Shown here: piece by piece, positions 1,233 to 51,566 of the stretch
How the letters are laid out: each line of letters begins with the position of its first letter
Position numbering within the stretch: the stretch's first letter is position 1
Assembly (NCBI GenBank): GCA_041658745.1
Contig: JBAZZP010000001.1
Span: 165,434-229,433, forward strand
DNA length: 64,000 nucleotides
DNA from: Candidatus Margulisiibacteriota bacterium
GTDB taxonomy: Bacteria > Margulisbacteria > WOR-1 > O2-12-FULL-45-9
Direction of reading: 5' to 3'
Notes under the pieces: model-generated
Database searches by the model: none
Told to the model about the DNA's origin: nothing
Seen by the model: the letters and a program-made list of their open reading frames with translations, nothing else
Made by a program: the position numbers and the translations under genes

Positions 1233-1652
1233 CTACTTTTTCAACAAATATGTTCCAACAAATATTCTAGATAAATTGGCAAACAATATAGAAATCAACC
1301 AAACAAAAATAATACACTTAAGCGTAAAATAAACCTCTGTTTTTATAACTAAAGCAATTAAAAAGGTAATAATGGCCGATGAAGAAATCACAAAAGAGTT
1401 ACCTAATACTTGCTGGATTGTCGAAACTTCTTTTTCGGGATATTTATACATACCACCCATAAAAAAAACAATCAACCAAATCATAGTAATAGGCGCGATA
1501 ATACTATTGTAGACCTCGAAAGAAAAACCAATTATTCCACCCAAATACATTTTCAGATTAAAAATTAATAAAAAAGAAAAATAAATAGTAACAGCATCGA
1601 ATAGCAATATTGCTATTTCATACAACCAAAATCGCCAGTTTATTTTAATCAC
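1233..1652 (-). CDS. hypothetical small integral membrane protein
   Basis: 139 aa, about 4 hydrophobic segments. It sits between the glycan locus and the housekeeping genes. No recognisable motif. Confidence 0.35.
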   Translation of the reverse strand: MIKINWRFWLYEIAILLFDAVTIYFSFLLIFNLKMYLGGIIGFSFEVYNSIIAPITMIWLIVFFMGGMYKYPEKEVSTIQQVLGNSFVISSSAIITFLIALVIKTEVYFTLKCIIFVWLISILFANLSRIFVGTYLLKK

Positions 1653-1674: not shown

Positions 1675-3492
1675 TTACGAAGAGGCCAAATGCAATATCC
1701 TTGCCCTTATCTGATCAATTTGCCTTTTTTCAGCTAAATCCGTTAAGACATCAATCTCCGCTTTTAATTTATCATAATTCCTTGTTTCAGGCTTAGCAAT
1801 AAATATCTTTTTATGTTTAGTGGCTCGGGTTCCCTCTGATGAAGTAAAGATTTCTTCGAACAGTTTTTCTCCAGGCCGCAACCCAATGATTTTTATCTCA
1901 ATATCTTGACCAACTTCTAGCCCAGACAATTTAATTAAATCCTTTGCCAAATCCAATATTTTGACTGGTTCTCCCATATCTAAAATAAATATCTCGCCAC
2001 CTTTTCCCATTGCCCCAGCCTGGATCACCAATTGCACCGCTTCTGGAATGGTCATAAAGTAACGAGTAACCCCTGGATGGGTTATTGTTACTGGCCCCCC
2101 AGCCAAAATTTGCTGCTTAAATATAGGAACAACGCTCCCGCGGCTATCCAGCACATTTCCAAAGCGGACTGAAACAAACTTGGTTTCACTCCCGCCTTGG
2201 GCCTGGGCCTGCAATATCATTTCAATTATTCTTTTAGAAGCTCCCATTACACTAGTGGGATTAACAGCCTTATCTGTAGAAATATTAACAAAAATCTTTA
2301 CTCCGTAATGATCAGCAGCACGAATAAGATTCTGTGTACCTAAAATATTATTTAAAATAGCCTCATCAGGATTAGCTTCCATTAAGGAAACATGCTTGTG
2401 AGCGGCAGCGTGAAAAACAACCGTGGGATGATATTTTTTAAAAAGATAATCGACCTTAAGATTATCGCGCATGTCACCAATTACCACTTTTATATTCAAA
2501 AATGGGTATTTTTTGCGCAGTTCCCACTCAATATTAAAGATACTGTTTTCGCCTCGTCCAAACAAAAGAAGCTCCTTTGGTTGAAACAATGCAACTTGCT
2601 TACATATCTCCGAACCAATTGAACCTCCAGCTCCGGTAACTAATATTACTGCATCAGTTAAATACCCCGCAATTTCTTTAAGATCAATTGCTACTGGTTC
2701 TCTCCCGAGTAAATCATCTATCTGAACATTCCTAATCTGACTAATATGAATTGAACCATCGATAAGCTCATAGACTCCGGGAACAATCCTGAATAACACT
2801 TTGCTCTCTTCGCAATAATTCACAATGCGCCGTATTTCTTTCCCCGCGGCTGATGGAATGGCAATAACGATTTCATCTATAGAATATTTGTCAACTAAAG
2901 TCCGAATTTCGTTTGTCTCACCTAAAATTGGAAGACCATGAATATACATCCCCTTCTTTGTATTATCATCATCAACAAAACCAACAGGAGAATAACCTAG
3001 ATGTGGCAGCTTCAACATTTCACGGGATATCATTTCTCCAGCATCGCCAGCACCAACAATCAATATCACTCTTTTCTTTCCCATTTTGTTGCCTTTGTGC
3101 ATATTTTGCATCCAATGTCTAATAAAAAGACGTCCTCCACCTAAAAACGCAAAACAAATAACAGCATCAACAACTAAAACCCTAAAAGGAAAACCAACAA
3201 ATCCAAAGATCAAAATAGAAAAAGCAATAAGCATTGAGCTAATTCCTACCGCTTCGACTAAAGAAATCAGCTCCTTTACACTGGCATATTGCCACGCCCA
3301 ATGATAAATACCAAAATTTCGAAAAGTTCCAATTCTAAAGGCGATACCAAGCAAAATTACCCACCAGAACGATTCAATTAGTATAAAATTGCCAAAAAGC
3401 AGATAAAAGGAGGTAACCAAAGAAAATCCAATAAAAAAAATATCCGCGAGAACTAATAACACAAGAGATCTATAAACTATTATTCGATTCAT
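1675..3492 (-). CDS. membrane-anchored nucleotide-sugar 4,6-dehydratase (CapD/PglF/WbpM family)
   Basis: 605 aa. N-terminal TM helices are followed by two Rossmann regions: VGAGDAGEMISREM, then VLVTGAGGSIGSEI ... STDKAVNPTSVMGASKR (the YxxxK region). This is the typical UDP-GlcNAc 4,6-dehydratase architecture. Confidence 0.85.
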   Translation of the reverse strand: MNRIIVYRSLVLLVLADIFFIGFSLVTSFYLLFGNFILIESFWWVILLGIAFRIGTFRNFGIYHWAWQYASVKELISLVEAVGISSMLIAFSILIFGFVGFPFRVLVVDAVICFAFLGGGRLFIRHWMQNMHKGNKMGKKRVILIVGAGDAGEMISREMLKLPHLGYSPVGFVDDDNTKKGMYIHGLPILGETNEIRTLVDKYSIDEIVIAIPSAAGKEIRRIVNYCEESKVLFRIVPGVYELIDGSIHISQIRNVQIDDLLGREPVAIDLKEIAGYLTDAVILVTGAGGSIGSEICKQVALFQPKELLLFGRGENSIFNIEWELRKKYPFLNIKVVIGDMRDNLKVDYLFKKYHPTVVFHAAAHKHVSLMEANPDEAILNNILGTQNLIRAADHYGVKIFVNISTDKAVNPTSVMGASKRIIEMILQAQAQGGSETKFVSVRFGNVLDSRGSVVPIFKQQILAGGPVTITHPGVTRYFMTIPEAVQLVIQAGAMGKGGEIFILDMGEPVKILDLAKDLIKLSGLEVGQDIEIKIIGLRPGEKLFEEIFTSSEGTRATKHKKIFIAKPETRNYDKLKAEIDVLTDLAEKRQIDQIRARILHLASS

Positions 3493-3494
3493 TT

Positions 3495-4127
3495 TTAAGC
3501 CATATTATCAGGTAATTGTTTAATGCCAAAAATTGGGGCAAAAAAATGGACTTTGAGCGTTAAAAATAAGATTTGTATATCGACCCAGATATTATGTTTT
3601 CGAACATATTTCAATTGCAAACGGATTTTTTCAGGTCTAATTTTTTCTAAATATACTTTTTCTGGATCTATACTGCCTGCGAGCAATGAGCCTTCATCAG
3701 GATTCCAAATACAAGCCCAATCAGTAATGCCAGGAAGGACGCTAAGTATTTGTTTTTCCTCCTCCGTAAACAAATTAACATATATGGGTACCTCAGGCCG
3801 AGGGCCAACTAAACTCATTTCTCCACGTAAAACGCTTATAAGCTGCGCTAGCTCATCAAAATTATACTTTCTAATAATTTTGCCAATGTTGGTCACACGC
3901 ATATCATCGCCAGAAGTTGATGGCCCCCCGATTTTATCAGCATTCTGCACCATTGTTCTGAATTTGAATATTTTAAAGAGTTTGCCGTTTTTCCCAACTC
4001 TAATTTGCCGATAAAACACCGGCCCTGGAGAATCACGCTTTATCAACACGGCTAAAACTATAAATAAAGGAGCAGCCACAATAAGCCCAAATATCGACAA
4101 AATAATATCCATTAAGCGCTTAATCAT
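3495..4127 (-). CDS. small monotopic phosphoglycosyltransferase (PglC/WbaP-C-terminal 'bacterial sugar transferase')
   Basis: 210 aa. One N-terminal TM, then RDSPGPVFYRQIRVGKNGKLFKIFKFRTM and SLVGPRPE motifs. Start/stop coupled to the adjacent CapD-like gene. Confidence 0.85.
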   Translation of the reverse strand: MIKRLMDIILSIFGLIVAAPLFIVLAVLIKRDSPGPVFYRQIRVGKNGKLFKIFKFRTMVQNADKIGGPSTSGDDMRVTNIGKIIRKYNFDELAQLISVLRGEMSLVGPRPEVPIYVNLFTEEEKQILSVLPGITDWACIWNPDEGSLLAGSIDPEKVYLEKIRPEKIRLQLKYVRKHNIWVDIQILFLTLKVHFFAPIFGIKQLPDNMA

Positions 4128-4141
4128 AAATTAGTTGTCCA

Positions 4142-5311
4142 TTAAATTTGCAATAGCTTCTTTAGCCCTTTTTCAACATTTGACATTGTTTCCTCTTTTT
4201 TGCAAAAACAAAATCGCACCTGATTATTGCCCTTGTCTGATTCAGCATAGAAAGAACTCCCAGGCACTGTGGCAACCCCGGTTACCTCAATTAGTTTACG
4301 GCTAAAAGAAAAATCATTACTAACCCCTAGCTTTCTCATTAAATGGTCAGCTTCTGCAATGATATAATAAGCCCCTTTTGGCAAAACTGGACTAAACCCA
4401 ACTTCATTTAGCAATTTATATAGAAATCCCCTAGATTTTTCATATTTTTGTCTCAATTGATCGTAATAAGAATCCGGCATGTGCATGGCCACAACTGCAG
4501 CTTCTTGAAAAGGAGTTGGAGCGCCAACGGTTAAAAAATCATGAACCTTCCTAATTCGTGCCGTAATCTCAGCATTCGCAATTGCCCACCCAACGCGCCA
4601 TCCAGTCACAGAATATGATTTTGAAATAGAATTAATAGTTACGGTTCGATCTGCCATACCCCCTAGGGATGCAATCGAAATGTGTTCCGCACCATCATAC
4701 AAGATATGTTCATAAATTTCATCGGTTATCGCTAAACAATCCCATTTTTCACAAAGGGCAGCAATCTCTTCCAATTCTTTGCGTGAAAAGACCTTTCCGG
4801 ATGGGTTATTAGGGGTATTTATTATTATGGCTTTTGTCTTATCATTGAAAGCAGCGGCAAGCTCTTTTGAATCATAATGCCAGTCGGGAGAATAGATAGT
4901 TACATACCTTGGAGTAGCACCCGAGAGAATGGTATCTGCTCCATAATTTTCATAAAACGGCTCAAAAATAACGACTTCATCTCCAGGATTGATTACAGCC
5001 TTAAGGGTAGCAATCATTGCCTCTGTTGCACCACAGGTAACGGTTATATCTGTGTCAGGAGAACAAATTATTTTATTGTAGCGAGCAACTTTTTCTGCAA
5101 TTGCTTTTCTTAATTGCGGTTCGCCAAAGGTGACCGGATATTGATTGCAATCTCTAAGGATGGCATCAATCGCCGCTTGTTTTATCTCTTTTGGAGCTTC
5201 AAAATCGGGAAACCCCTGGGACAGATTATATCCTCCGGCAGCATCACAAACCCTAGTCATTTCACGAATAACCGATTCGGTAAATTTTTCGGTGATATAT
5301 GAAAGCTTCAT
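4142..5311 (-). CDS. class I/II PLP-dependent aminotransferase (AAT/MalY-like fold)
   Basis: 389 aa. NLSQGFPDF, VTCGATEA, FEPFYENY and the PLP-lysine region SISKSYSVTGWRVGW. Unusual in a glycan operon. Confidence 0.75.
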   Translation of the reverse strand: MKLSYITEKFTESVIREMTRVCDAAGGYNLSQGFPDFEAPKEIKQAAIDAILRDCNQYPVTFGEPQLRKAIAEKVARYNKIICSPDTDITVTCGATEAMIATLKAVINPGDEVVIFEPFYENYGADTILSGATPRYVTIYSPDWHYDSKELAAAFNDKTKAIIINTPNNPSGKVFSRKELEEIAALCEKWDCLAITDEIYEHILYDGAEHISIASLGGMADRTVTINSISKSYSVTGWRVGWAIANAEITARIRKVHDFLTVGAPTPFQEAAVVAMHMPDSYYDQLRQKYEKSRGFLYKLLNEVGFSPVLPKGAYYIIAEADHLMRKLGVSNDFSFSRKLIEVTGVATVPGSSFYAESDKGNNQVRFCFCKKEETMSNVEKGLKKLLQI

Positions 5312-5358
5312 CGTTCCCCTTTCTAATAACTATCGCAATGATTACACAGGTTATTCAA

Positions 5359-6462
5359 TTAGACAAAAAATTTGCGAACAGTTTGAATAACATATTGCAC
5401 TTGTTCTTCTGAAATTTCCACATTCATAGGTAAAGAGATAACTTCTTTAGATATGGACTCAGTCTCAGAGCAATAAGACCCGTCTAAATTTAGCCCATTG
5501 TAACTATAATATGGCTTGGGCCAGTGGATTAAGATTTCAATGCCGTTTTCTTTCAACCAAGCGGAAAGATTGTCTCTTTGTGAGGTGCGGATAACATAGT
5601 TCTGATAAACATCGTCATTTTTGTGATCATCAAAATGCGGAAGACCCAAATCTTTTAGTCCGCTTAGCCCATCAAGATATTGCTTAGCAATTTCTTTTCT
5701 CCGTTTTATCCAATTAGGTAGATGGCGCAATTTAACATCCAAAAAGGCGGCTTGGAGATTGTCTAATAAACAGGTAAAACCATGGTAGTAATAAGCCCCT
5801 GTTGTTCTATCTTCGCCATTATACCGAAGCAGGCGCGCTATACGAGCAGCTTCCGGATCATTTGTGGTTATTGCCCCACCATCGCCATATCCCCCCAAAA
5901 TCTTGAAAGGATAAAAGCTCCAACAACCGGTTAAACCAATTGAACCAGCCTTTCTTCCATTATAACTGGCACCCAAAGATTGGCACGCGTCTTCGATCAC
6001 AATTAACTTATGTTTCTCGGCAATGGATTGAACCGCATCCATATTTGACATTCGCCCATTAAGATGAACAGGGATAATAGCCTTAGTTTTTGGTGTGATC
6101 GCTGCTTCGATTTTTGAAACATCAATATTATAATCCTTACTAACATCAACCAATTTAGGAGTTCCGCCCGCATTGACTACGGCCGAAGCGGTAGCCACAA
6201 AAGTATGTGCGGGAACAATCACTTCATCACCGGATTTTATCCCGGCAATAATCATAGAAACATGTAAAGCATCGTAGCCACTATTTAGTCCAACAGCATA
6301 CTTTGTCCCTACGAAAGCCGCCAAATTATCCTCAAAACCGCTCAACTGACCCCGCATAATTAGATCGCCAGCTGTCATAACCTCGTTATAAGCACTATCA
6401 ATTTCATTTTTTATGAGCTGATAATTTTTTTTAGAATCAACAAACGGCACTTTATAGTTCAT
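5359..6462 (-). CDS. DegT/DnrJ/EryC1/StrS sugar aminotransferase
   Basis: 367 aa. DEVIVPAHTFVAT...; lysine retained in SFYPFKILGGYGDGGAI. Confidence 0.85.
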   Translation of the reverse strand: MNYKVPFVDSKKNYQLIKNEIDSAYNEVMTAGDLIMRGQLSGFEDNLAAFVGTKYAVGLNSGYDALHVSMIIAGIKSGDEVIVPAHTFVATASAVVNAGGTPKLVDVSKDYNIDVSKIEAAITPKTKAIIPVHLNGRMSNMDAVQSIAEKHKLIVIEDACQSLGASYNGRKAGSIGLTGCWSFYPFKILGGYGDGGAITTNDPEAARIARLLRYNGEDRTTGAYYYHGFTCLLDNLQAAFLDVKLRHLPNWIKRRKEIAKQYLDGLSGLKDLGLPHFDDHKNDDVYQNYVIRTSQRDNLSAWLKENGIEILIHWPKPYYSYNGLNLDGSYCSETESISKEVISLPMNVEISEEQVQYVIQTVRKFFV

Positions 6463-6483
6463 TCTTCTTCTCCAATTAATTAT

Positions 6484-7482
6484 TTATTTTTTATTTCTCA
6501 ATAGCTTTTGCGCTTCGATTATTATATCATTTTTATTTGGATAATAACACTTTTCTAAATTGCCATTGGCAGGAGCAGGAATATCTGGCAAGGTGATCCT
6601 TTTAATGGGCGATTTTAAAACTATGGGGCTTTCGGCAACTAAAGCCGCAATTTCAGCAGATATTCCGCCAGTTTTCCATCCCACATCGGCCACAATTAAA
6701 CGTCCAGTCTTTTGCACCGAATCTAAAATAATTTCTTTATCGAGTGGTTTTACGCTTCGCAGGTCAATAATTTCTGCGCTGATACCAAGTTTCTCTAACT
6801 CCTCACCTGCTTTACAGGCTTCATGAGCCATATAAGAAATCGCCGCAATAGTAAGATCGGTCCCTTTTCTTCTAATTACCCCTTTGCCGATGGAAATAGA
6901 GTATCTTTCTCTGGGAACAGCCTCTTCTAGTGAATAGAGCCATCTGTCATCAATAAAAACAACCGGATTATTATCTTCAATGGCAGCAATCATTAATCCT
7001 TTTGCATCATAGGGAGTTGCAGGCATAACAACTTTTAAACCAGGTACATGCGCAAACATGGCATGTAAGGCTTGAGAGTGTTGGGCCCCCTGCTCCCCAC
7101 CTCGATTAATAATCCCCCAGATAACTACAGGGACACTGGCCTTTCCACCATTCATGTAATACCAGTTGGCGGCTTGATTAATGATAGGATCAAAGCCGTA
7201 GATCATAAAATCTAGCCGGGGGTGCACAACAATAGACCTCATCCCAGCAATAGCAGCTCCCACAGCTGCACCGGTAATGGCATTTTCAGATACAGGAGTA
7301 TCAATAACCCTATTTTCACCGAATTTGGCAATTAGCCCCCTAGTTGTATTTCCCACATACCATGGGCTTTTCACCCCTTGGCCAATTAAAAACACTGATT
7401 TGTCCTTTGACATCATTTGATGCAGTGCTTCATTGATTGCTAGACTGTAAGACAATTTTCTTTTTTTATTTTTTGAAGACAT
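6484..7482 (-). CDS. TPP-dependent 2-oxoacid dehydrogenase E1 component beta-like subunit (transketolase C-terminal-like)
   Basis: 332 aa. Pyrimidine-binding and transketolase-C regions (VIDTPVSENAITGAAVGAAIAGMR, VVMPATPYDAKGLM). Overlaps the following E1-alpha gene. Confidence 0.8.
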   Translation of the reverse strand: MSSKNKKRKLSYSLAINEALHQMMSKDKSVFLIGQGVKSPWYVGNTTRGLIAKFGENRVIDTPVSENAITGAAVGAAIAGMRSIVVHPRLDFMIYGFDPIINQAANWYYMNGGKASVPVVIWGIINRGGEQGAQHSQALHAMFAHVPGLKVVMPATPYDAKGLMIAAIEDNNPVVFIDDRWLYSLEEAVPRERYSISIGKGVIRRKGTDLTIAAISYMAHEACKAGEELEKLGISAEIIDLRSVKPLDKEIILDSVQKTGRLIVADVGWKTGGISAEIAALVAESPIVLKSPIKRITLPDIPAPANGNLEKCYYPNKNDIIIEAQKLLRNKK

Positions 7483-8443
7483 ATTTACCCAGATCGCTTT
7501 CTTGCGGACAAGGACTTTTCAATGCAAAATTAAAAGCATCATTAATTTCCGCATCAACCTGTTCTTTTATCTTTAAAAGTTCCGCCTTGCCAAAAACTCC
7601 ATTCAACAAATAGCGCTCGAACCGTCTAATTGGATCTTTTTTAAACCAACCTGCAATTTCTTTTTTGGGTCGAATATCTGTGTGAACTCCTTGGACATTA
7701 TCATCGGCCCCGACATGTCCACGAAACCGATAAGTCATAAATTCGATAAAGACCGGCCCTTTGCCTGAGCGGCAGGCTAGCGCCGCCTTTTTTGCAACAG
7801 CAAAAACAGCTAACACATCATTGCCGTCAACCCTAAAACTCGGTACCGAAAAAGGCAGACCAGACTTGTATATTGTTCCATTGGCTCGACATTCGCGGAT
7901 TGACATATGCGTTGAATAAAGATTGTTTTCACAGGCAAAAATAATTGGGAGCTTCTTTAACGCAGCAAAATTAAAACTTTCATAAAGGACCCCTTCTCCC
8001 GTTGCCCCATCACCAAAAAAAGAAACCGTTACTTTTTTATCCTGGCAAATAGCAGAAGCTAGCGCCGAACCCAATGCTAGAGAAATTGTCCCAGCCACAA
8101 TTGGCGCCGACCCTAGCATTCCGGTCGCCGGTTTGCACAAGTGCATAGAACCTCCTCTTCCGCGAGAACAGCCCGTCTCCTTGCAATATACCTCAGCAAT
8201 TAATTCTTTTATCGTCCCTCCATGCGCCAAAAAGTGCCCATGGGATCTATGATTTCCAAAAACATAATCTGTCGGGCTTAAGGCCGCGCAAACTCCAGCC
8301 GCGACCGCTTCTTGCCCGGTACAAAGATGAACAGGACATTTAACTTCGCCATTTGAGATTGGGGCAATTAAGCTTTCTTCACACAGTCTTATTTGCAATA
8401 ATGTGTAATATATAGATCTTAATATACTCTTCGAATAAATCAT
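7466..8443 (-). CDS. TPP-dependent dehydrogenase E1 component alpha-like subunit
   Basis: 325 aa. TPP motif GDGATGEGVLYESFNFAALKKLPIIFACENN (GDG...NN), HLCTGQEA. No E2 or E3 partner is present. Confidence 0.8.
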   Translation of the reverse strand: MIYSKSILRSIYYTLLQIRLCEESLIAPISNGEVKCPVHLCTGQEAVAAGVCAALSPTDYVFGNHRSHGHFLAHGGTIKELIAEVYCKETGCSRGRGGSMHLCKPATGMLGSAPIVAGTISLALGSALASAICQDKKVTVSFFGDGATGEGVLYESFNFAALKKLPIIFACENNLYSTHMSIRECRANGTIYKSGLPFSVPSFRVDGNDVLAVFAVAKKAALACRSGKGPVFIEFMTYRFRGHVGADDNVQGVHTDIRPKKEIAGWFKKDPIRRFERYLLNGVFGKAELLKIKEQVDAEINDAFNFALKSPCPQESDLGKYVFKK

Positions 8444-8489
8444 GTCGTTATAATTATACAGTAAATAGTCTTAAAATGTTTGGGGAATT

Positions 8490-9503
8490 TTAAATTTCCT
8501 TTTCTTCATCAGTCAGAGAGACATCATAATTATTTTTAATACGTTTTAATACAACCTCGGCCGGAATACTCTCTAGAACGTCCCCTATTTTAAAATCTAA
8601 AATAGAACTATCGCTAAATTTCTTTACAAGTATTGTCCCGTCCAAAGTTTTAACCACAAATTGCTCTAGTGAGATTGAGATATCAACAATAGTCCCGGGT
8701 AAAGTTTTATTGTGGAACAAACAGGGATCAAATGGACATGCATCAAGAATATATATCTTTTTATTATTGTGGGAACAAAACGCCGGAGGATAGGGAGGTA
8801 AGACAGCTCTAATAAGATTGTAGATTTGCATTGACCTTTGATTCCAATCGATAGCGCTGTCTTCGGGGGTTCTTTTGGGATAAAAAGTGGGCTTTTCGGG
8901 CGGCTGCGGCCAGGCAATTTCACGATTTTCTCCAATTAATTGGATATATGTTTTTAAAAGATCTTGCATTGCAATTCGATTCTTCATGTGCAAAGAAGCA
9001 ATCGTATCAAAATCATTGATTTCAAATGAACGAAAACCAATAATATTGCCAGCATCAATCTTGGGATCATATTTAAATAAATAAGTGATAAACTTTTTCT
9101 GGCCAGTTATTAAAGACCAATTTAAAGGGGACCTTCCACGCCCTTTAGGGAGGCCAAAAGCACTGCCGTGCATTCCACAAGCAAATTTGCCTAAAGCGGC
9201 CAATACTGCCTCAGGCACAAGCCTTTCCCAGCCTATAACAATCAATAAATCAATTTTTTCGTTTAAAAAGAACTGAACGTCTTTTGTATCATTAAGATTG
9301 TAAGAATTTGTTAAATATATCGGAATTGAGTTTTTATTGCATAGATTTTCGATCTCAACACCTTTATAAAAAGCTACTTGATTTTTCTGAGCAATTTTTG
9401 CAGGCAACGTTATCACCAAATCCACAGAGAAAACCTCTAATTCCTTAATGAAGCTAATTAAATCTAAGGTGGTCCCTTTACAACCCAAAATTGCTATTTT
9501 CAT
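8490..9503 (-). CDS. formyltransferase-fold protein (Fmt/ArnA-N-like; putative sugar N-formyl/acyl-transferase)
   Basis: 337 aa. HGSAFGLPKGRGRSPLNW resembles the HxSLLPxxRG loop. DPKIDAGNIIG resembles the DxGxI catalytic Asp region. Extra C-terminal domain. Confidence 0.6.
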   Translation of the reverse strand: MKIAILGCKGTTLDLISFIKELEVFSVDLVITLPAKIAQKNQVAFYKGVEIENLCNKNSIPIYLTNSYNLNDTKDVQFFLNEKIDLLIVIGWERLVPEAVLAALGKFACGMHGSAFGLPKGRGRSPLNWSLITGQKKFITYLFKYDPKIDAGNIIGFRSFEINDFDTIASLHMKNRIAMQDLLKTYIQLIGENREIAWPQPPEKPTFYPKRTPEDSAIDWNQRSMQIYNLIRAVLPPYPPAFCSHNNKKIYILDACPFDPCLFHNKTLPGTIVDISISLEQFVVKTLDGTILVKKFSDSSILDFKIGDVLESIPAEVVLKRIKNNYDVSLTDEEKEI

Positions 9504-10233
9504 TTTGAAAAGTCCCCCTAAATGCTTTTGTAAAATTATTTTTTATATAACAGTTTACTTCTGAAATCCTTCTCTTAATTAAAATTTTTTTAAATTTACG
9601 GATATTGTTTTCAGGATACCACCAACACGGGTGCAGCAAAAGCTGAATACTTGGTTCTCGATTCTTCAATAAATTTAATAATTTAGGATAAAATTCCTTG
9701 TTTCGGCGAGAGTCACTTACATAGCAATCTTTACTAAAATATTCTGCTTGATATGAATTTACAAAACCTGTAAACTTTTTACCCAAAACCCTATTTGTCG
9801 GCCGATGAAAACTCACAACAAAGTCGATATCAACAATGCAATCGTTGAACCAATTCAATGTCTTCATAATCTTTTCTTCATCTTCAGAAAGGAGTTGTTC
9901 GTCAATATGCAGACCAACACAATGTCCCAATTTTCGCAATTCTATAATTGTAGCTATATTTTTGGGAGAAAAAATATTATACGTATCAGCCCCAATTTGA
10001 AAAAAAAAGTTTGCTTTTATTCCATTATTATTTTCAATTTGTCCTAATTTTAAAGCGCTTAATGGGGAAATATCCACATCATGCCGAAGATATATAATTT
10101 TATTGCGTTTGTTTTTAAGGGGGAGGTCGAATCGGCAAAAGATATAATCATTTGATGCCACTTCCACAAGCAAACGCTCAAAGGAACGATAATTATATTC
10201 GAACGTATTATTTTTAAAATTTTTTTTATACAT
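9478..10233 (-). CDS. hypothetical protein, possibly divergent polysaccharide deacetylase-like
   Basis: 251 aa. LRHDVDISP and GHCVGLHIDE are loosely reminiscent of CE4 motifs. Contains a 9-nt homopolymer (10000..10008). Weak call. Confidence 0.3.
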   Translation of the reverse strand: MYKKNFKNNTFEYNYRSFERLLVEVASNDYIFCRFDLPLKNKRNKIIYLRHDVDISPLSALKLGQIENNNGIKANFFFQIGADTYNIFSPKNIATIIELRKLGHCVGLHIDEQLLSEDEEKIMKTLNWFNDCIVDIDFVVSFHRPTNRVLGKKFTGFVNSYQAEYFSKDCYVSDSRRNKEFYPKLLNLLKNREPSIQLLLHPCWWYPENNIRKFKKILIKRRISEVNCYIKNNFTKAFRGTFQNENSNFGL

Positions 10234-11251
10234 TCACTATGTTTTCCTTTGACTCCGGCAAAAAGAAAACAGAACAAGCATAAATTGATCCCAACCCATA
10301 CCCAAAATGAAAGGCTGCAAACAAAATGGGCATTACAAAGAGATAACTTATATCTTTTTCCTTAATCGCTATTTGCAGGGAAAAAGCCAGGCTAGTGGCA
10401 AGATATAACCCTAAAATAATTAAAAACAACAACCCCGCCAGCCAATTTACCATTCCCAGGATCCCCAAAACCACTAAACTAAGAACAAAGGTGAGAGGCA
10501 CATAGTGGCGCCAAGATAAGGGAATCGGCACAAATTTAGTGGGATATATGGCCCAAAAACCATTGCGAAAATTGTGTTTGCAGTAGTTAATAAAATCTGA
10601 CCGCACATAATAACAGCTTACGATCTCTGGGTGTAAAAGTATTTTCCCCCCAGCCTTTTTTAATCGGATATTAAATTCCATATCTTGGCTATTTATCAGC
10701 TTTTCATTAAAATACCCAATCTTATCAAAAAGTGTTTTTCTGTAGCACCCACCAAACACTGTATCTACCCATTTCATCTCCTTATAATTTCTGCGAAAGG
10801 TAGAGTTTCCGGCACAAAATGGATGCGAAAAAGCAATTGTTATTGCTTTACCAAGCAAGGTATTGCTTCTGGGAAGCATCTCGACACGCCCGCCAACATT
10901 ATCAGCTTTGTATTCATTGAGATATTTTACGCTTTTAAAGATATAATCTTTATGATAGGTCGAATGCCCCCCTAAAATAATTACTATTTCACCTTTAGCC
11001 GCCTTTATCCCGCGATTAAAAGCACAAGGGGTTATTTTACGAGGATTATCTACCAGTTTTACAAAGGTAAATTTATTCTCATATTCTTTAATAATTTCTC
11101 TTGTCCCATCCGTACTCATCCCATCAACAACCAATATTTCCAATTTATCTTTGGGATAATCATTTGCAATGATTGAATCAAGACAAGTAGTAATAAATTT
11201 GGCTTCATTTCGGCATAAAACAATGGCAGTAACCTGTGGTAAATCATTCAT
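10226..11251 (-). CDS. family 2 glycosyltransferase with C-terminal TM anchor
   Basis: 341 aa. VTAIVLCRNEAKFI, LEILVVDGMSTDGT (DxD-type), then hydrophobic C-terminus. Confidence 0.8.
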   Translation of the reverse strand: MNDLPQVTAIVLCRNEAKFITTCLDSIIANDYPKDKLEILVVDGMSTDGTREIIKEYENKFTFVKLVDNPRKITPCAFNRGIKAAKGEIVIILGGHSTYHKDYIFKSVKYLNEYKADNVGGRVEMLPRSNTLLGKAITIAFSHPFCAGNSTFRRNYKEMKWVDTVFGGCYRKTLFDKIGYFNEKLINSQDMEFNIRLKKAGGKILLHPEIVSCYYVRSDFINYCKHNFRNGFWAIYPTKFVPIPLSWRHYVPLTFVLSLVVLGILGMVNWLAGLLFLIILGLYLATSLAFSLQIAIKEKDISYLFVMPILFAAFHFGYGLGSIYACSVFFLPESKENIVNV

Positions 11252-11781
11252 TAAAAGAATTTCCCTTCATTTTTTAATTTTTCGTAGTGAACTAAATTGC
11301 GGGATTTAAACATTTTGGCTGGACTACCACCAACAATTGCACATTTTGGAACATCGCTAACCACGACACTTCCTGCCTGAATAATTGCACCTTCACCAAT
11401 TGAAACTCCGCCTAACACAATGATCTTTGAGCCAAACCAAACGTTATCTCCAATAATAATATCTTTAGTGATAATGTTTTCGTCATACGGAATTTTGGTC
11501 CCATTATCAAAATTATGATTTTGGGTAATAAACAAAATATCCTCGCCCGAATGAAAATTATCGCCAAAAACTACCTTCCCTCCACCATGAATTTTTAATC
11601 CATTAAAATTGCAGTTTTTACCAAGATAAGTATTTGAAGATAAAGAGGTCCCAGAAAATGGGCGAATGTATGGGGCTTCCTTGTAAGCGGCAATTTTCCT
11701 CAGATTTTTCCTAACAATAATGGACTCGGCAAAGCCCTTGAATATTCTTCTAATAAGTCTAAACAATCCCACATCTCCCAC
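11251..11781 (-). CDS. hexapeptide-repeat (LbH) acetyltransferase
   Basis: 176 aa. Repeated [LIV]G-x4 hexapeptides: [35 protein letters not shown]. Confidence 0.75.
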
Positions 11782-13863: not shown

Positions 13864-14893
13864 TTTTCATTTTAATAATTTCTCTGCTTCTAGCAGACAT
13901 TCTATCTCGCAACTCCTTATTTCGCAACAAATGGATAATTCTTTCCGCGAGTATCACTGGATTGCTAACCGGCACAATATAGCCATCAGTCCCATCCTTA
14001 ACCCACAAATTATTTTCTCCGGAATCGGTAATAACAACCGGCAAGCCACAGGCCATGGCTTCGGCCGTACTGGCAGCAATGCCAGCATCAGAAAGCGAGG
14101 TCGAAACATAAAGATCAGCGGCCTGAAGATAGGCAGGCAGTTCATCATTTTTCAACATACCGATAAATCTAACGTTTTGTCCCACCATTAGCTTTCCAAC
14201 CAATGCCTTTAAGGATTGATCTAGTGAACCAGTCCCAGCCAAAACAAATGCTGCGTCCGGAAATTCTTTCAGCACAAACGGGATAGCGCCAATTAACGAA
14301 GAAACATCATAGATTGGCTCAAAACTTCTCAGACTTATTATCATTGGGGCCGCAAGGATTTTTAATTTTTCTCTCACATGACCACAGTTATTACCTACAC
14401 AAAACTTATGAGTATCAATTCCAAAATTTATAATCCGTATTTTCTTTTTACTTATTCCTAATTTCAACATGGTTTTTAACATATGCTCAGCATCACAGGT
14501 CACCAAAGCAGCTCGGGATAAAATAAATTTGAGCATTAGCTTCCTTAGCCAGTACTTAATTCCCAAAATCACATCTGACCCCCAAACGGTAATAACCTGT
14601 GGATAGCCCCATCCCGCAATTGAACCCACTACCCCATAAGTTCCAGCCGAATGGATATGAATAATATCAGGATTAATTTCTTTTATTAGCTTTCTGGTTT
14701 TTACAATGGCATGCAATACGGTTTTAATATTTACCGGAGAGGTTATAATTTCATGATAATTTGCAAATTCAATCTTACCAAAGTTTGATGGGGCTAAAGA
14801 TATCCATGACACAGCATGCCCTTTATTTGCAAAAAAATTAATCCATTTGTAACTATGAATTGAATTTGAACCGGCTAAAAAACAAATCTTCAT
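13796..14893 (-). CDS. GT4 family glycosyltransferase
   Basis: 365 aa. STSLSDAGIAASTAEAMACGLPVVITDSGEN is the classic GT4 EX7E region. Confidence 0.8.
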   Translation of the reverse strand: MKICFLAGSNSIHSYKWINFFANKGHAVSWISLAPSNFGKIEFANYHEIITSPVNIKTVLHAIVKTRKLIKEINPDIIHIHSAGTYGVVGSIAGWGYPQVITVWGSDVILGIKYWLRKLMLKFILSRAALVTCDAEHMLKTMLKLGISKKKIRIINFGIDTHKFCVGNNCGHVREKLKILAAPMIISLRSFEPIYDVSSLIGAIPFVLKEFPDAAFVLAGTGSLDQSLKALVGKLMVGQNVRFIGMLKNDELPAYLQAADLYVSTSLSDAGIAASTAEAMACGLPVVITDSGENNLWVKDGTDGYIVPVSNPVILAERIIHLLRNKELRDRMSARSREIIKMKNDYWTEMEKMDKLYEVVFSVCR

Positions 14894-16155
14894 TATTTAT
14901 CTACCTCATCGACAACCATATTATTGCTTAATTGGTTGATTAATCCAAAAGGCATAATCATTATATATAAAAGCACAATATCTAAAATCGGAGCAACCAT
15001 TAGCCAGGCAAAAGACATAAAAATGGTTAACATAAGTAATATTGAATATTTACTTCTGGAAATTAACACCTTAATAAAGGCAAAAAGAAAACACACTGTT
15101 GTAAGCAGCATACCGATCAAGCCTGTATCAATCATTAAAGCCGCAAAAGCCGTACTTCTCTGTCCTAAAATCAGTTTATGGGAATACCACCCCTCTCCCA
15201 CTAAGGCTGAAACAATGTTATTATCCAACAGAACAAAGGCTCGCTTAAAATGTGAACCACGATCTTTATCCTGTTGCCCCGAAACAGCTTCGGTAGCTTG
15301 AATGCCAACCAAAAAATAATCAGTAAATGAATATTTTGAATACACTGTTAAAGTATTATTCCAACTAACAAGTATTATCGCCATTAAAAGGATTATGAGA
15401 ATTTCGCGCAGACGAATGCGGGGAAGATAAATAAACATAAGCCCAACAACTGCCAATATAACCATTCGGGAATCATAATAAAAACCAACGATTAAAGAGA
15501 TAAATGCAACTAAAAATACTAGTAATCTTGAAAACCAATTTTTTGCATTTTCGTTATAACATAAGACGGCTGTTATTGACATCAATACTGGAAAAACGGC
15601 AGCAGCAGAACCGGACCATTCGCTTCCTTGCGGCAGAAACCTATTTATCTTAAGAACAAATTCTGAATAGAACCCGTGAAAAAAATAGGTCAACATATAT
15701 AACAATCCAGAAATGGCAGTTATCATTGCTGCTTTATTACTAGATAAAACCATAAAATAGCGATTTGAGAGGATAAAGGGCATAATTCCTAATAGAAGGT
15801 AGTAGATAACAAAACGCATCATTCGAATATCTTCACTTATTATCACTCCCCGAATGCATTGAAACACCATATAAAAAGACATTAACAAAAAGATTATTAG
15901 GTGCAATTTATCAAAATTGCTTATTTTCTCTCTGATAAATGGAATGGCTCCAATAGAAAAAGCAAAAAGAATACCAAAAAAAATACAATCAACCAAGTAT
16001 TCATCGATAAGTGCGTATCCACCCAACATAATGCCTGAACCCAAAATACAAGCTGGAATAAGCATGTACCATAACATTTTAGGTTTCATTGCTCCAACAA
16101 AAAACAAGATTGGACCAAGAATAATAAACAAAAACACCAAAAAGGAATAAACCAT
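14893..16155 (-). CDS. polytopic membrane protein, Wzy-like O-antigen polymerase/ligase candidate
   Basis: 420 aa, 10 or more predicted TM segments with a larger loop near residues 290-330. Located between the GTs and the Wzx flippase. Confidence 0.45.
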   Translation of the reverse strand: MVYSFLVFLFIILGPILFFVGAMKPKMLWYMLIPACILGSGIMLGGYALIDEYLVDCIFFGILFAFSIGAIPFIREKISNFDKLHLIIFLLMSFYMVFQCIRGVIISEDIRMMRFVIYYLLLGIMPFILSNRYFMVLSSNKAAMITAISGLLYMLTYFFHGFYSEFVLKINRFLPQGSEWSGSAAAVFPVLMSITAVLCYNENAKNWFSRLLVFLVAFISLIVGFYYDSRMVILAVVGLMFIYLPRIRLREILIILLMAIILVSWNNTLTVYSKYSFTDYFLVGIQATEAVSGQQDKDRGSHFKRAFVLLDNNIVSALVGEGWYSHKLILGQRSTAFAALMIDTGLIGMLLTTVCFLFAFIKVLISRSKYSILLMLTIFMSFAWLMVAPILDIVLLYIMIMPFGLINQLSNNMVVDEVDK

Positions 16156-19539: not shown

Positions 19540-21014
19540 ACAGATGATCCTGCTTTTCTAATAAACCCTCTTAACACAGCCAGATATTTTTGCGGAGAAA
19601 AATAAGGAAAAGAGATAAAACAGAGAAACAACAAAAACAATAGTATCTTACACACGAAATACAGCAGCATACTAAGTTTGATCCCGATAAAAATATAATA
19701 TAGACCCGCGAAAAGAAAGAAAATGCTAAACGTATAAGTGAGATATTTTAGTGGGGTAACATGCATTTTCAAAACATGTTTGACTACAAACCAAGTTAAT
19801 AAAAACATTATTAAATATGAAAGGGTTGAGGTATAAGCAGCTGCCATGTACCCATACAGCGGAATAAAAAATATATTCAAAACAATACTTATTAAGCCGC
19901 AAGCAATAGAGATGACCGAACCGTAAATCATTTGTTTTGAATAACCGATATATCTAGCGTAAATTGTAAACATGGCAAAAAAAATATTGCCCATTACAAT
20001 CCAAGGTATAATTGGGATACCGGCACAATATTTTCTACCAGCCAAAACCATTACGATTTCAGGAGAAAAGATCATTAGTAAAAACGCAAATACAACGATT
20101 AAAATAAATGCTTTTTTTACCAATCGGTCTAAACGGACGTTTTCCCCAATATTTAAAAAATGAAAAAAATCAGGGATCAAAGCTGAGTTAACGGAAAGGA
20201 TAAATGACTGCAGAATCATACCAATGTTGCTACCAAGACTGTAAATGCCAGCCGATGCAGCGCCCTGCACGTTGTTGATAATTATTCTATCCGCCTGCGC
20301 CAATATGACCCCACTTAAAGTGTAAGGGATTAGAGGTAATCCCAAATACAAAGCATATTTTAGATATTCAAATTTAAATTCAAAAGAAACATATTTCTTA
20401 AGGAGTTTCAAGCAATATGTCGAAACAATAATCCCACCAATAATCTGCCCCCAAATAAGCCCTAAATAACGCGCTTGCACAAAGACAAAAACCAATGCAA
20501 TACTACAACTAACTGCCAAAAAGGCCTTTGAGAAATCAAGCGCCACTAACAATTGGCTCTTGCGCTCTGCCTCAAGAATTTGCCGATTAATCGAATCAAT
20601 TAACGTCAATAAAATAAAAACCATCAAAGGGAAAAAGAGACCAACTGGAATTCCCAACCAACTTGACAAGTTATCTCGAAATATATAGGCGATAATTGCA
20701 TTGATTACAAACAATGGGAAAAAGGCAATGACAATACTGCTGATAAACCCGCCAATGTCCTTTTTGTCTTCATAATAATACCTGCCGACCGAAGTAAACA
20801 AATTAAAGGTCATTAAGACTGAAAGAATGCTTGCGGCTGAACCATACAAATTAACTATTCCATATTCATTTAAGGTTAACATCCTAGTAAAAATTGGAAT
20901 AGAAATAACACTTAAGGCTTTGATCGCCAAGTTGCCACCAAAATAATTTCTAGAATGTTTCAGCGTTGAGCCGATATCATCGGATTTTATTTTATTCAGG
21001 AAGCGTTTGATCAT
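19536..21014 (-). CDS. wzx: Wzx-type oligosaccharide flippase (MOP superfamily)
   Basis: About 12 TM segments, typical Wzx N-terminus (GGNLAIKALSVISIPIFTRMLTLNEYG). The ORF track starts at 21092. I place the start at the ATG 21014..21012, which forms an ATGA overlap with the upstream stop. Confidence 0.7.
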   Translation of the reverse strand: MIKRFLNKIKSDDIGSTLKHSRNYFGGNLAIKALSVISIPIFTRMLTLNEYGIVNLYGSAASILSVLMTFNLFTSVGRYYYEDKKDIGGFISSIVIAFFPLFVINAIIAYIFRDNLSSWLGIPVGLFFPLMVFILLTLIDSINRQILEAERKSQLLVALDFSKAFLAVSCSIALVFVFVQARYLGLIWGQIIGGIIVSTYCLKLLKKYVSFEFKFEYLKYALYLGLPLIPYTLSGVILAQADRIIINNVQGAASAGIYSLGSNIGMILQSFILSVNSALIPDFFHFLNIGENVRLDRLVKKAFILIVVFAFLLMIFSPEIVMVLAGRKYCAGIPIIPWIVMGNIFFAMFTIYARYIGYSKQMIYGSVISIACGLISIVLNIFFIPLYGYMAAAYTSTLSYLIMFLLTWFVVKHVLKMHVTPLKYLTYTFSIFFLFAGLYYIFIGIKLSMLLYFVCKILLFLLFLCFISFPYFSPQKYLAVLRGFIRKAGSSV

Positions 21015-25009: not shown

Positions 25010-25762
25010 TTACCGCCATTTGCCCTTTTTAGCTATAAATTGCCGATAAGCATCTCTAGTTGGCATTGGATAGTAACTACCTTTCCCAGAAGAAGGGAAG
25101 ATTTCAAATTTATCACCCAACTTGAATTTTTCAATTGTTGTAACCATTAATCGAGCGGTAATCCTAGTCAGTTTTCTATAAAGAGAGTCGACACTTTCAT
25201 CGGGAGTAATATCAAATTTTTCCTGCATAATCACATTGCCAGCATCAATTTTTTCTGCCATATAAAATATGCTAACTCCAGATGAAGTCTCTTTATTAAC
25301 AAGCTGCCAAAAAAAGACTTCAAGCCCTCGATAATCCGGCAAAATGGAAGGATGACAACCAATTGTAGCAACCCGAGCAAGTTTAATCGTGGCTTCTTTA
25401 TAGATATGCATAGTAAAGGTAGAGACGATAAGATCAGGAGAAAAATCCTTGATATATTCATGTGCCTTAGATCCATTAATATCTTCTGTAAAATACACTT
25501 CTATTTTCCATTTCTTAGATCGAGAATATAAGGTGTCACCTTTAAATTTATAAATTAATCCGTCCCAAAAACGATTAAGACAGAAAACGAAACTGGCTTC
25601 ACGCAACATCTTAATGATGGAAGCAAAAAATGACTTCTTATAATATAATCCAGTCGTGATTATTATACAAAAATCTATGTGGGGATGATTCTTAACGATT
25701 TCGGAAATAATCTCACGCGCACCAAAGTTATCGTGACCGACAAGAATTATTTTTTTTATCAT
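25010..25762 (-). CDS. sugar N-formyltransferase (formyl_trans_N fold, ArnA-N/WbkC/VioF-like)
   Basis: HPSILPDYRGL (HxSLLPxxRG motif) and KIDAGNVI (catalytic Asp region). The track ORF begins with TTG at 25795; the ATG at 25762 (MIKKIILVGHD...) is the likelier start. Confidence 0.7.
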   Translation of the reverse strand: MIKKIILVGHDNFGAREIISEIVKNHPHIDFCIIITTGLYYKKSFFASIIKMLREASFVFCLNRFWDGLIYKFKGDTLYSRSKKWKIEVYFTEDINGSKAHEYIKDFSPDLIVSTFTMHIYKEATIKLARVATIGCHPSILPDYRGLEVFFWQLVNKETSSGVSIFYMAEKIDAGNVIMQEKFDITPDESVDSLYRKLTRITARLMVTTIEKFKLGDKFEIFPSSGKGSYYPMPTRDAYRQFIAKKGKWR

Positions 25763-25911
25763 TTCATTGATTCCCCATAGATGAAACAAACTCAATTTCC
25801 GGCAACGACATCAATAATTTACCACTTTGCATTAAATAATCTATTTTGTCTGCCTTTGCATCTGTTTCTGATATTATCGGAATTACTGACTCCGAAGTAA
25901 TGCAACCTGAT

Positions 25912-34463: not shown

Positions 34464-34465
34464 AA

Positions 34466-34927: not shown

Positions 34928-34948
34928 TTCTCACTCCTAATTAATCAA

Positions 34949-36064: not shown

Positions 36065-36069
36065 AAAAA

Positions 36070-36076
36070 CCTCCTT
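36070..36076 (-). promoter_or_regulatory. Shine-Dalgarno AAGGAGG for amidotransferase start at 36064
   Basis: Minus-strand AAGGAGGTTTTTATG, with perfect 5-nt spacing. Confidence 0.55.
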
Positions 36077-36189
36077 AAATTCATCTAAAATATATCTATT
36101 TGACAAAATGAGAGAAAATTATTTCGCCAAACAGCAACACCTTAGCTAAACGGGAACGCCTATTCATTCCTAAAATCACCTCCTTCTTC

Positions 36190-37215: not shown

Positions 37216-37249
37216 ATTATTTAAAACAACCTTTTCCAGCTTATAATCA

Positions 37250-39000: not shown

Positions 39001-39005
39001 AATAC

Positions 39006-41690: not shown

Positions 41691-41693
41691 GAC

Positions 41694-51555: not shown

Positions 51556-51566
51556 GTTTTTCCTCC

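Follow-up and report, generated by a model that had tools for sequence, protein, structure and literature searches.

A conserved gene cassette with a putative sugar-branching E1 alpha/beta pair in surface-glycan loci of Candidatus Margulisiibacteriota and other bacterial phyla

Introduction

Three classes of thiamine diphosphate (ThDP)-dependent enzymes which add acyl anions to keto sugars have been described: YerE-like decarboxylases, alpha-KADH2 enzymes, and split-gene transketolases (PMC12247030). Here, we report on a 64,000-nucleotide stretch of DNA from a Candidatus Margulisiibacteriota bacterium (assembly GCA_041658745.1, contig JBAZZP010000001.1, positions 165,434 to 229,433), hereafter called the window. 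Its positions 1675-9503 carry a block of seven genes which includes an E1 alpha/beta-like pair of ThDP enzyme subunits. This block had been singled out by an initial annotation made from the sequence alone.

The alpha-KADH2 enzymes are E1 alpha/beta pairs which act on antibiotic sugars (aldgamycin, avilamycin, paulomycin, trioxacarcin, kosinostatin, kibdelomycin). They are known to introduce branches at C3 and C4 and are seemingly specialized for two-carbon (C2) units from pyruvate; KbDH-alpha/beta has been found to couple pyruvate to ketones in vitro (PMC12247030). The branch ketone is later reduced, methylated, oxidized, or, in the case of kibdelomycin, transaminated (PMC12247030). In paulomycin biosynthesis, the acetyl branch made by Pau11/12 is reduced by the aldo-keto reductase (AKR) Pau7 (PMC4753412; PMC4425429). 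Split-gene transketolases have been proposed for miharamycin and amipurimycin, with all 13 candidates originating from the secondary metabolism of Streptomycetes, while YerE-like decarboxylases act in lipopolysaccharide (LPS) biosynthesis (PMC12247030).

According to published descriptions and gene content, the pair from the window resembles those of the alpha-KADH2 class (AviB1/B2, Pau11/12, the aldgamycin pair, KbDH) in several respects. E1 alpha (ca 325 aa) and E1 beta (ca 335-345 aa) are encoded by separate genes, E2 and E3 are lacking, and the pair belongs to a deoxysugar cluster which makes a keto sugar. The branch ketone would be reduced by an AKR, as encoded in sister cassettes, or transaminated, which would be the task of a DegT-family enzyme here and has its parallel in kibdelomycin. 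The differences concern the context, which is a cell-envelope glycan locus rather than an antibiotic cluster, and the acceptor, which is likely a 4-keto sugar derived from a UDP-N-acetylhexosamine (UDP-HexNAc) rather than a TDP-deoxysugar. Also, the pair is tied to a PglC-like priming phosphoglycosyltransferase (PGT) and an extra class I aminotransferase (AT1), and the cassette is spread through at least a dozen non-actinobacterial phyla.

Two further systems are related in part. YerE/YerF, ErwE, MMAR_2332, and MygE, the enzymes of the yersiniose, erwiniose, caryophyllose, and gastriose pathways, likewise use ThDP to add an acyl anion at the C4 ketone of nucleotide-4-keto-6-deoxy-sugars which are destined for LPS, and the branch ketone is tailored afterwards. 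However, these are single-chain decarboxylases similar to acetolactate synthase (ALS) rather than E1 alpha/beta heterotetramers, and their acceptor is a CDP-3,6-dideoxy sugar. The Campylobacter Pgl pathway (PglF, PglE, PglD, PglC), which leads to UDP-diNAcBac, shares with the window a PglF-like and a PglC-like enzyme with a DegT-family enzyme acting between them. It differs in that PglD is not encoded in the block from the window, that the aminotransferase of the window is far from PglE, and that an E1 pair and AT1 are inserted.

From the comparisons described below, we lean, with moderate confidence, towards a pathway in which the E1 pair transfers a C2 unit from pyruvate to the PglF product at its C4 ketone, the resulting branch ketone is aminated by DegT, and the PGT uses the product for priming.

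Results and Discussion

The seven-gene block at positions 1675-9503

The entire window is a single glycan island on the minus strand. The block at 1675-9503 consists of seven consecutive minus-strand open reading frames (ORFs), the ends of which agree with the initial annotation. Within the block, the ORFs overlap or are separated by only 2-47 nt, which indicates that they form one operon. ORF boundaries, Pfam assignments, and motifs confirmed the gene composition proposed earlier. In the order of coordinates, the genes code for a PglF/CapD-type membrane-anchored UDP-HexNAc 4,6-dehydratase (1675-3492, 605 aa; Polysacc_synt_2, 1.9e-119, with an N-terminal CoA_binding_3 domain), a small monotopic PglC-like PGT (3495-4127, 210 aa; Bac_transf, 3.4e-58), and AT1, an enzyme of the kynurenine/glutamine-transaminase-K/YbdL type (4142-5311, 389 aa; Aminotran_1_2, 6.2e-69). 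These are followed by the DegT-family sugar aminotransferase (5359-6462, 367 aa; DegT_DnrJ_EryC1, 9.9e-101), E1 beta (6484-7482, 332 aa; Transket_pyr, 2.4e-34, and Transketolase_C, 8.2e-34), E1 alpha (7466-8443, 325 aa; E1_dh, 4.1e-69), and a formyltransferase-fold protein (8490-9503, 337 aa; Formyl_trans_N and Formyl_trans_C). The E1 alpha gene and the E1 beta gene which follows it share 17 nt.

The best solved relative of the PglF-like protein is PglF/WlaL from C. jejuni (6e-88), and the motifs STDK and MGASK can be read from its translation. For the PGT, the best solved relative is PglC (3e-26), and the motifs are FDELAQ, which contains the DE dyad, and GPRP. The PglF-like dehydratase presumably supplies the acceptor, UDP-4-keto-6-deoxy-HexNAc, and the PGT would load the finished UDP-sugar onto a lipid carrier. 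Just downstream of the PglF-like gene, a 139-aa strongly hydrophobic ORF without family match is found (1233-1652, minus strand). As judged by eye, it may be a remnant of the N-terminal membrane part of a large polyprenyl-phosphate glycosyl-phosphotransferase. Promoter and terminator scans gave results at chance level only, and an Rfam scan, which included the thiamine pyrophosphate riboswitch, returned nothing.

The E1 pair belongs to a clade from sugar clusters

E1 alpha carries the ThDP motif GDG..NN in the form FGDGATGEG...ACENN, and the motif DTPVSE is present in E1 beta. Among the ORFs with 130 aa or more in the 64-kb window, none codes for domains indicative of E2 (lipoyl, 2-oxoacid_dh) or E3 (Pyr_redox), so that the earlier description of the pair as devoid of E2/E3 holds. 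Together with the intact, adjacent E1 genes, the 4,6-dehydratase, and a coupled tailoring enzyme, this corresponds to the gene context that characterizes alpha-KADH2 enzymes. Relatives of E1 alpha are numerous, with more than 120 protein clusters at 63-69% sequence identity spread across phyla.

The pair might nevertheless be the E1 component of a housekeeping or an acetoin/pyruvate dehydrogenase which happens to reside in a glycan island and is served by a distant E2/E3. It shares with the E1s of pyruvate, branched-chain 2-oxoacid, and acetoin dehydrogenases the fold, the GDG..NN motif, and the active-site His. E1 alpha is ca 45% identical to human pyruvate dehydrogenase (PDH) E1 alpha over residues 35-323 (estimated by eye; E-value 2.3e-56), and E1 beta scores 320.9 bits against a cut-off of 321 for NF006667, a subfamily model among the NCBIfam models for PDH E1 beta, and thus stays within 0.1 bit of it. 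Also, the search for E2/E3 covered the 64-kb window. On the other hand, E1 alpha reaches only 297.7 bits with TIGR03182 (cut-off 393.85) and is below the cut-offs of both PDH E1 alpha equivalogs from NCBIfam, and the genes of the pair are translationally coupled inside a glycan operon.

Phylogeny was the means by which the initial annotation had suggested looking for clustering with E2/E3-linked E1s. A neighbour-joining tree of E1 alpha sequences (Kimura distances, 100 bootstraps), with comparators chosen by gene context, revealed a separate clade from sugar clusters instead. The E1 alphas from the conserved cassette described below are monophyletic in 99 of 100 bootstraps. Joined by four more distant E1 alphas from other sugar contexts (L059, L069, L073, L096), they are monophyletic in 92 of 100 and are set apart from E2/E3-linked E1s. 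The neighbours of the first three of these are nucleotide-sugar genes. The fourth (L096) is from plasmid pDMC1 of Solidesulfovibrio magneticus RS-1, with genes for a kinase, E1 alpha, E1 beta, a fucose-synthase-like reductase, DegT, an epimerase/dehydratase, and a nucleotidyltransferase. Outside of this group are the E2-linked E1 alphas from a Sinorhizobium plasmid, which served as a control (L097; gene order E1 alpha-E1 beta-E2-lpdA-lipA), from three Opitutales loci in which E1 is followed by E2 (L070, L075, L077), and human PDHA1, which is the E1 of a known complex.

The cassette proteins also differ from E2-linked ones in individual residues. P37, P114, F159, and G245 (numbering of E1 alpha from the window) are among the residues which are present in at least 95% of the cassette E1 alphas and in none of the E2-linked ones compared. 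This set also comprises the substitutions GDGATGEG for GDGAANQG in the ThDP motif and GHVG for GHSM beside the catalytic His. Thus, the dehydrogenase E1s differ from the pair in the window by their E2/E3/LipA neighbours (as in the Sinorhizobium locus), by belonging to a separate clade, and by substitutions next to the His and in the ThDP motif. The lack of E2/E3 in 64 kb and the placement in a sugar-cluster clade support, at the level of sequence comparison, that the pair is not a housekeeping dehydrogenase. Conserved synteny with PGT, DegT, and PglF across phyla and gene fusions to DegT (see below) also argue against a housekeeping or acetoin/pyruvate dehydrogenase E1, which we consider very improbable.

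A cassette conserved across phyla

When E1 alpha was used to scan one genome per species, 80 loci were obtained, about 60 of which code for a protein with 53-68% sequence identity to that from the window. For these 60 loci, partner genes were counted by tblastn with the window proteins and by clustering of the neighbouring ORFs. The gene set PGT-E1a-E1b-DegT(-AT1)-PglF is shared, with 53-73% sequence identity, by ca 60 species-representative genomes, which cover more than a dozen phyla. As specified by the record titles, the carriers are assigned to Thermodesulfovibrionales, Omnitrophica, Elusimicrobia, Syntrophales/Smithella, Desulfobacteraceae, Nitrospiria, Bacteroidales, Flavobacteriales, Calditrichia, Phycisphaerae, Fuerstiella, an anammox planctomycete, Latescibacterota, Bacteriovoracaceae, Actinomycetota, and Patescibacteria.

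A PGT homolog is encoded in 55 of the 60 loci, usually immediately upstream of E1 alpha, and an E1 beta homolog (59-73% sequence identity) in 53. DegT is encoded in about 40 loci and AT1 in 23, there directly after DegT of subtype A (see below). PglF homologs were found in 21 loci and SAM (S-adenosylmethionine) methyltransferases in about 30. The gene order from the window, E1a-E1b-DegT-AT1-PGT-PglF, also occurs in locus L044. The GT2-family glycosyltransferase which is encoded upstream of the block in the window (10226-11251, minus strand, 341 aa; Glycos_transf_2, 5.5e-24) and which probably adds the second sugar has homologs (33-55% sequence identity) upstream of the PGT in 21 of the 60 loci. 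It was also detected in L094, one of the loci with a split transketolase.

Conserved genes for an acyl carrier, E2, a coenzyme A (CoA) ligase, or an acyltransferase were not found in the cassette. Similarly, neither a 3,4-ketoisomerase nor an extra oxidoreductase is conserved in the cassette, where PglF is the only recurring carbonyl-generating enzyme.

Cassettes with an AKR or a split transketolase, and fusion genes

In 12 loci, an AKR (Aldo_ket_red, 7e-68) is encoded between PGT and E1 alpha. For nine of these, DegT is lacking within the 11-21 kb of locus sequence, and the gene set is PGT-AKR-E1a-E1b-PglF. The variants with respect to AKR, DegT, and AT1 are intermixed inside the cassette E1 alpha clade, which suggests that the E1 pair catalyzes the same reaction throughout and that the partners act downstream of it.

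In four other loci, which come from metagenome and metagenome-assembled genome sequences, a split transketolase (Transketolase_N and Transket_pyr/Transketolase_C) is found in place of E1 alpha/beta: L093 (420-4531), L094 (9111-12103), L081 (869-2971), and L098 (3327-6181), with the N-terminal half being broken in the latter. PGT and DegT of subtype A are retained in all four, as are GT2, AT1, or PglF where present. These loci thus resemble the miharamycin and amipurimycin systems by having a split transketolase, which occupies the E1 position next to PGT and DegT. In contrast to them, the known candidates are from Streptomycete secondary metabolism; the window itself has the E1 version.

Several of the enzymes are fused to each other. 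In three of the four transketolase-type loci, a transketolase half (C- or N-terminal) is joined to DegT; fusions of the C-terminal half are P0123 in L081 and P0326 in L094 (700 aa). E1 beta is fused to DegT in L029 (7665-9764, 699 aa). DegT is fused to AT1 in L010 (11967-14243, 758 aa) and in L093 (P0241, 770 aa), the two fusion proteins sharing 57% sequence identity. As deposited, the assemblies keep the reading frame across the junctions; single cases could be due to sequencing error. A DegT fusion to a short-chain dehydrogenase/reductase (SDR), P0346, was ruled out as a relative of the cassette, as it belongs to an unrelated dTDP-sugar cluster.

The variants bear on an alternative which had been raised in the initial annotation, namely that the class I transaminase and the E1 pair together generate an unusual acyl donor. 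In such a bacillosamine-like pathway, DegT would aminate C4 of the PglF product, and the E1 pair and a 2-oxo acid made by AT1 would supply an unusual N4-acyl group which replaces the acetyl group added by PglD. PglF-, DegT-, and PglC-like genes do occur together in a block devoid of PglD, AT1 is from a family of broad-specificity amino acid:2-oxo acid aminotransferases, and the E1b-DegT fusion would also be compatible with two enzymes sharing one sugar substrate. Yet there is no amine to acylate in the nine AKR cassettes, as these lack an aminotransferase; the E1 pair can be replaced by a split transketolase; and AT1 has been found fused to DegT but not to E1. In addition, the cassette has no conserved gene for a protein by which an acyl group might be carried, activated, or transferred (acyl carrier, E2, CoA ligase, acyltransferase). 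The E1 alpha phylogeny is unrelated to the presence of AT1, and DegT is distant from PglE and PseC. We know of no precedent for ThDP-dependent N-acylation without an oxidant or carrier. N-acylation by such a route is thus disfavoured, and we regard it as improbable.

The two aminotransferases

In DegT, the Lys which forms the Schiff base is located in the motif FYPFK. The protein is below the cut-off of all NCBIfam equivalogs. Its closest solved structures (with E-values from 1e-60 to 6e-89) are 7b0d (5.6e-89), DesV (2.8e-80), QdtB (9.5e-73), WbpE (2.7e-69), and WlaRG-type enzymes; a paper describing structure 7b0d was not found in the literature searched. PglE (1o61; 3.5e-26) and PseC (4.7e-29) are far behind. 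This similarity ranking, which is no proof of regiochemistry, fits a non-canonical target. The core of the block had been described as being of bacillosamine type in the initial annotation. This is appropriate for the PglF-like and PglC-like enzymes but is overstated for the block as a whole because DegT is not PglE-like.

Two subtypes of DegT were distinguished in the cassettes. Subtype A shows 61-68% sequence identity to DegT from the window and, wherever the sequence extends far enough, is directly or closely followed by AT1, except in L029. Subtype B shows 39-49% sequence identity and occurs without AT1.

AT1 (motif SISKS) is below every NCBIfam cut-off, and its best solved relatives are kynurenine aminotransferase (KAT)/glutamine transaminase K (1e-78). 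Its position behind DegT of subtype A and the fusion of the two enzymes in two lineages connect AT1 with transamination and not with the E1 reaction. It may regenerate the amino donor or remove the keto-acid co-product, thereby pulling the unfavourable amination of a ketone. A speculative variant would have DegT use alanine, with the release of pyruvate, which is the donor for E1. A role for AT1 as the source of a special 2-oxo-acid donor for E1 was rejected, as the E1 alpha clades are independent of AT1 presence and AT1 is fused to DegT. An AT1 homolog joined to a D-isomer-specific 2-hydroxyacid dehydrogenase is encoded on a short contig (P0245; L095 100-2268, 722 aa). It hints that the keto-acid product of the AT1 family is sometimes removed by reduction.

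A candidate pathway to a branched amino sugar

The order of functions in the cassettes, a dehydratase followed by E1 or transketolase and then by AKR or aminotransferase, matches known sugar branching and leads us to the C2-branch conclusion; of the options given in the initial annotation, the comparative evidence thus favours the two-carbon C-branch. The E1 alpha/beta pair would be a stand-alone ThDP carboligase of the alpha-KADH2 kind. The PglF-like protein, whose family assignment is clear, would convert UDP-N-acetylglucosamine (UDP-GlcNAc) to UDP-2-acetamido-2,6-dideoxy-hexos-4-ulose. E1 would then decarboxylate pyruvate and transfer the hydroxyethyl-ThDP carbanion onto the C4 ketone, which would give a tertiary alcohol with a 4-C-acetyl branch. 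The branch ketone would be the target of DegT, which would convert it to a 1-aminoethyl group, as has its precedent in kibdelomycin. AT1 might work alongside DegT in donor regeneration or co-product removal. Finally, the PglC-like PGT would put the sugar-1-phosphate on polyprenyl phosphate as the priming sugar, to be extended by the GT2 enzyme. In the genome from which the window was taken, but not in the others, a deacetylase-like protein and the formyltransferase-fold enzyme (see below) may add N-deacylation/N-acylation.

A carbon-carbon bond could also be formed at another acceptor carbonyl of the sugar (C3 after isomerization, or an aldehyde, which would yield a chain-extended sugar) or with a donor other than pyruvate, in which case DegT would aminate a ring carbonyl. 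Branching at C3 is known from alpha-KADH2 enzymes as well (PMC12247030), the closest solved relatives of DegT are C3 aminotransferases, and locus L012, in which AKR and DegT coexist, suggests two carbonyls. With respect to the donor, the cassettes with a transketolase point to the transfer of hydroxyacetyl instead of acetyl. Against a different acceptor stands the lack of a conserved 3,4-ketoisomerase or extra oxidoreductase, with PglF as the only recurrent source of a carbonyl; against a different donor stands the apparent specialization of alpha-KADH2 enzymes for C2 units from pyruvate (PMC12247030). We consider such a deviation in acceptor or donor rather unlikely.

Several observations weigh against transfer of a pyruvate-derived C2 unit to C4 followed by amination of the branch ketone. 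E1 alpha from the window still has the catalytic His known from PDH E1 alpha, so that the E1 sequence leaves room for lipoyl chemistry. In the Bacteroidales cassettes, PglF is not encoded within 10 kb, and the acceptor is thus an extrapolation there. A single branch ketone does not account for the combination of AKR, DegT, and AT1 in L012. The role ascribed to AT1 is read from its adjacency to DegT and from two fusions, and some of the fusions could be assembly errors (L010 appears to be from a long-read metagenome-assembled genome, and the N-terminal transketolase half of L098 is broken). Also, a glycan containing a 4-C-acetyl or 4-C-(1-aminoethyl) HexNAc was not found in the literature searched.

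If the pathway is extended to all cassette types, a set of new reducing-end sugars would result: a 6-deoxy-HexNAc with a 4-C-(1-aminoethyl) branch, a 1-amino-2-hydroxyethyl branch in the transketolase versions, and a 1-hydroxyethyl branch in the AKR versions. Surface glycans of many uncultivated lineages, from more than a dozen phyla, would be primed with such sugars. The fusions may point to a small metabolon in which alanine-derived pyruvate gives the two carbons and the transaminase pair the nitrogen, so that, in net terms, the decarboxylated skeleton of alanine is placed onto C4 of the sugar. We put this forward as a tentative proposal which, taken in full, may well not hold.

The formyltransferase-fold protein and its CE4-like neighbour

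The initial annotation had listed the formyltransferase-fold protein (8490-9503) among the partners of the E1 pair. This could not be upheld, as counterparts of its gene and of the ORF upstream of it (9478-10233, minus strand, 251 aa) were found in none of the 60 cassette loci. Its best solved relative is the formyltransferase domain of ArnA (1e-22). However, neither the Asn-His-Asp triad nor the SLLP motif of sugar N-formyltransferases which depend on N10-formyltetrahydrofolate (ArnA-N, WlaRD, VioF) is intact. Gly is found at the position of the catalytic Asn (cGmH vs. fNlH in ArnA), and SLLP is changed to SAFGLP by an insertion of two residues, while His112 and Asp150 are invariant. The Gly-for-Asn replacement and the insertion are kept in a subfamily of related loci (L082-L088); the more distant L090 and L092 keep the Asn. 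A second formyltransferase-fold protein from the window (25010-25795, minus strand) also has Gly in place of the catalytic Asn (iGcH). Judged by these residues, the Asn-less proteins may represent an unrecognized functional subclass.

The upstream ORF (9478-10233) has no match in Pfam or NCBIfam, and its family, which seemingly lacks a Pfam model, comprises 2973 representatives at E<=1e-3. Invariant residues are R50, D52, Y85, H109, H143, D174, and H201; H51, D54, and H104 are nearly invariant. Profile-to-PDB matches were weak (E-values 0.004-0.4). An AlphaFold2 (AF2) model computed from a 54-sequence alignment reached a pLDDT of 93.4, as compared to 35 for a single-sequence model. In a Foldseek search of the PDB, the top 14 matches were all CE4 deacetylases (probability 1.0), with TM-scores of only 0.37-0.54. 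According to this model, the protein looks like a divergent metal-dependent deacetylase with a CE4-like fold.

In a metagenome locus (L082), the relative of the formyltransferase-fold gene is also preceded by a homolog of ORF 9478-10233. In L086 and L088, such a relative is located near genes for a WbmS-like deacetylase and a GNAT protein. A BLAST comparison between ORF 9478-10233 and the WbmS-like deacetylase of a related formyltransferase-fold locus was negative. Because of this pairing and the CE4-like fold match, the two genes look like a separate, lineage-added deacetylase/N-acyl- or formyl-transferase module outside the conserved pathway rather than a replacement for PglD. As to PglD itself, the earlier statement that it is absent is correct for the block: a PglD-type N-acetyltransferase (PglD_N and hexapeptide repeat) is not encoded in 1675-11251. 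It does not extend to the window as a whole. Outside of the block, a maltose/WbbJ-type O-acetyltransferase-like hexapeptide protein is encoded at 11251-11781, and the sole PglD_N protein of the window (30506-31150, with hexapeptide repeat) is part of a legionaminic-acid-like module.

Other features of the window

That module opens a larger region (30506-43025, minus strand) with genes for the PglD-like acetyltransferase, a NeuC-like epimerase, a DegT-family enzyme, a LegB-like dehydratase, a WbuX-type amidotransferase, NeuB, and a cytidylyltransferase. Behind these genes, a second one for a NeuB-like protein is found, and next to it a WbpA/B/D/E-like set which would serve to make a 2,3-diacetamido uronic acid.

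At 56175-62707 (minus strand), the window contains another ThDP sugar-branching system, which differs from that of the cassette. It comprises a YerE-type ALS-like enzyme (56175-57983), which does not reach any of the ALS cut-offs, a KdsC-family phosphatase (57984-58484), a short NeuB-like synthase (58507-59376), an RfbH equivalog (CDP-4-keto-6-deoxyglucose 3-dehydrase; 59397-60734, 730 bits), a UbiA prenyltransferase, and a CDP-glucose 4,6-dehydratase equivalog (61649-62707). This looks like a pathway for a long-branch 3,6-dideoxy sugar of the erwiniose/caryophyllose type with a keto-acid donor made by NeuB.

Two sugar C-methyltransferases (Methyltransf_13/14 type) and two radical SAM proteins, one of them with a SPASM domain, are encoded at 26378-27637, 50455-52697, and 54096-55178 (minus strand), with adjoining NUDIX and SDR genes. 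The radical SAM/NUDIX set resembles the radical SAM-NUDIX-kinase genes which accompany the E1 pair of plasmid pDMC1 from S. magneticus. Two large glycan-operon ORFs on the minus strand lack Pfam matches (14893-16155, 420 aa; 21011-23083, 690 aa); these could code for a polymerase, ligase-type membrane proteins, or novel transferases. A gene for MTAP (476-1222; above the TIGR01694 cut-off) marks where the glycan island ends.

Conclusions

In the literature searched, we found no description of a widespread E1 cassette in surface-glycan loci, of its coupling to a PGT, of its interchangeability with a transketolase, or of the paired transaminase. E1 genes in the LPS locus of Coxiella, considered as a possible parallel, could not be confirmed from the Coxiella literature consulted. 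While the kind of enzyme is known from antibiotic clusters, its apparent occurrence in a surface-glycan cassette in many other phyla seems to be new. Our results suggest that branching of the E1 and split-transketolase types also takes place in cell-envelope glycan synthesis, in the form of a mobile cassette wired to a PglC-like PGT. Its carriers include Bacteroidales, Syntrophales, Nitrospirota, Planctomycetota, Elusimicrobia, Omnitrophica, Patescibacteria, and Margulisiibacteriota.

Branching-type E1s are currently annotated as "pyruvate dehydrogenase E1". If our interpretation is true, P37, P114, F159, and G245 would be candidate signatures by which these can be separated from dehydrogenase E1s in genome annotation. 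The cassettes would also provide a diverse panel of ketone-accepting carboligases and matched transaminases for the biocatalysis of chiral tertiary alcohols and amines. For the organisms themselves, a new family of branched amino sugars would be predicted at the reducing end of their surface polysaccharides.

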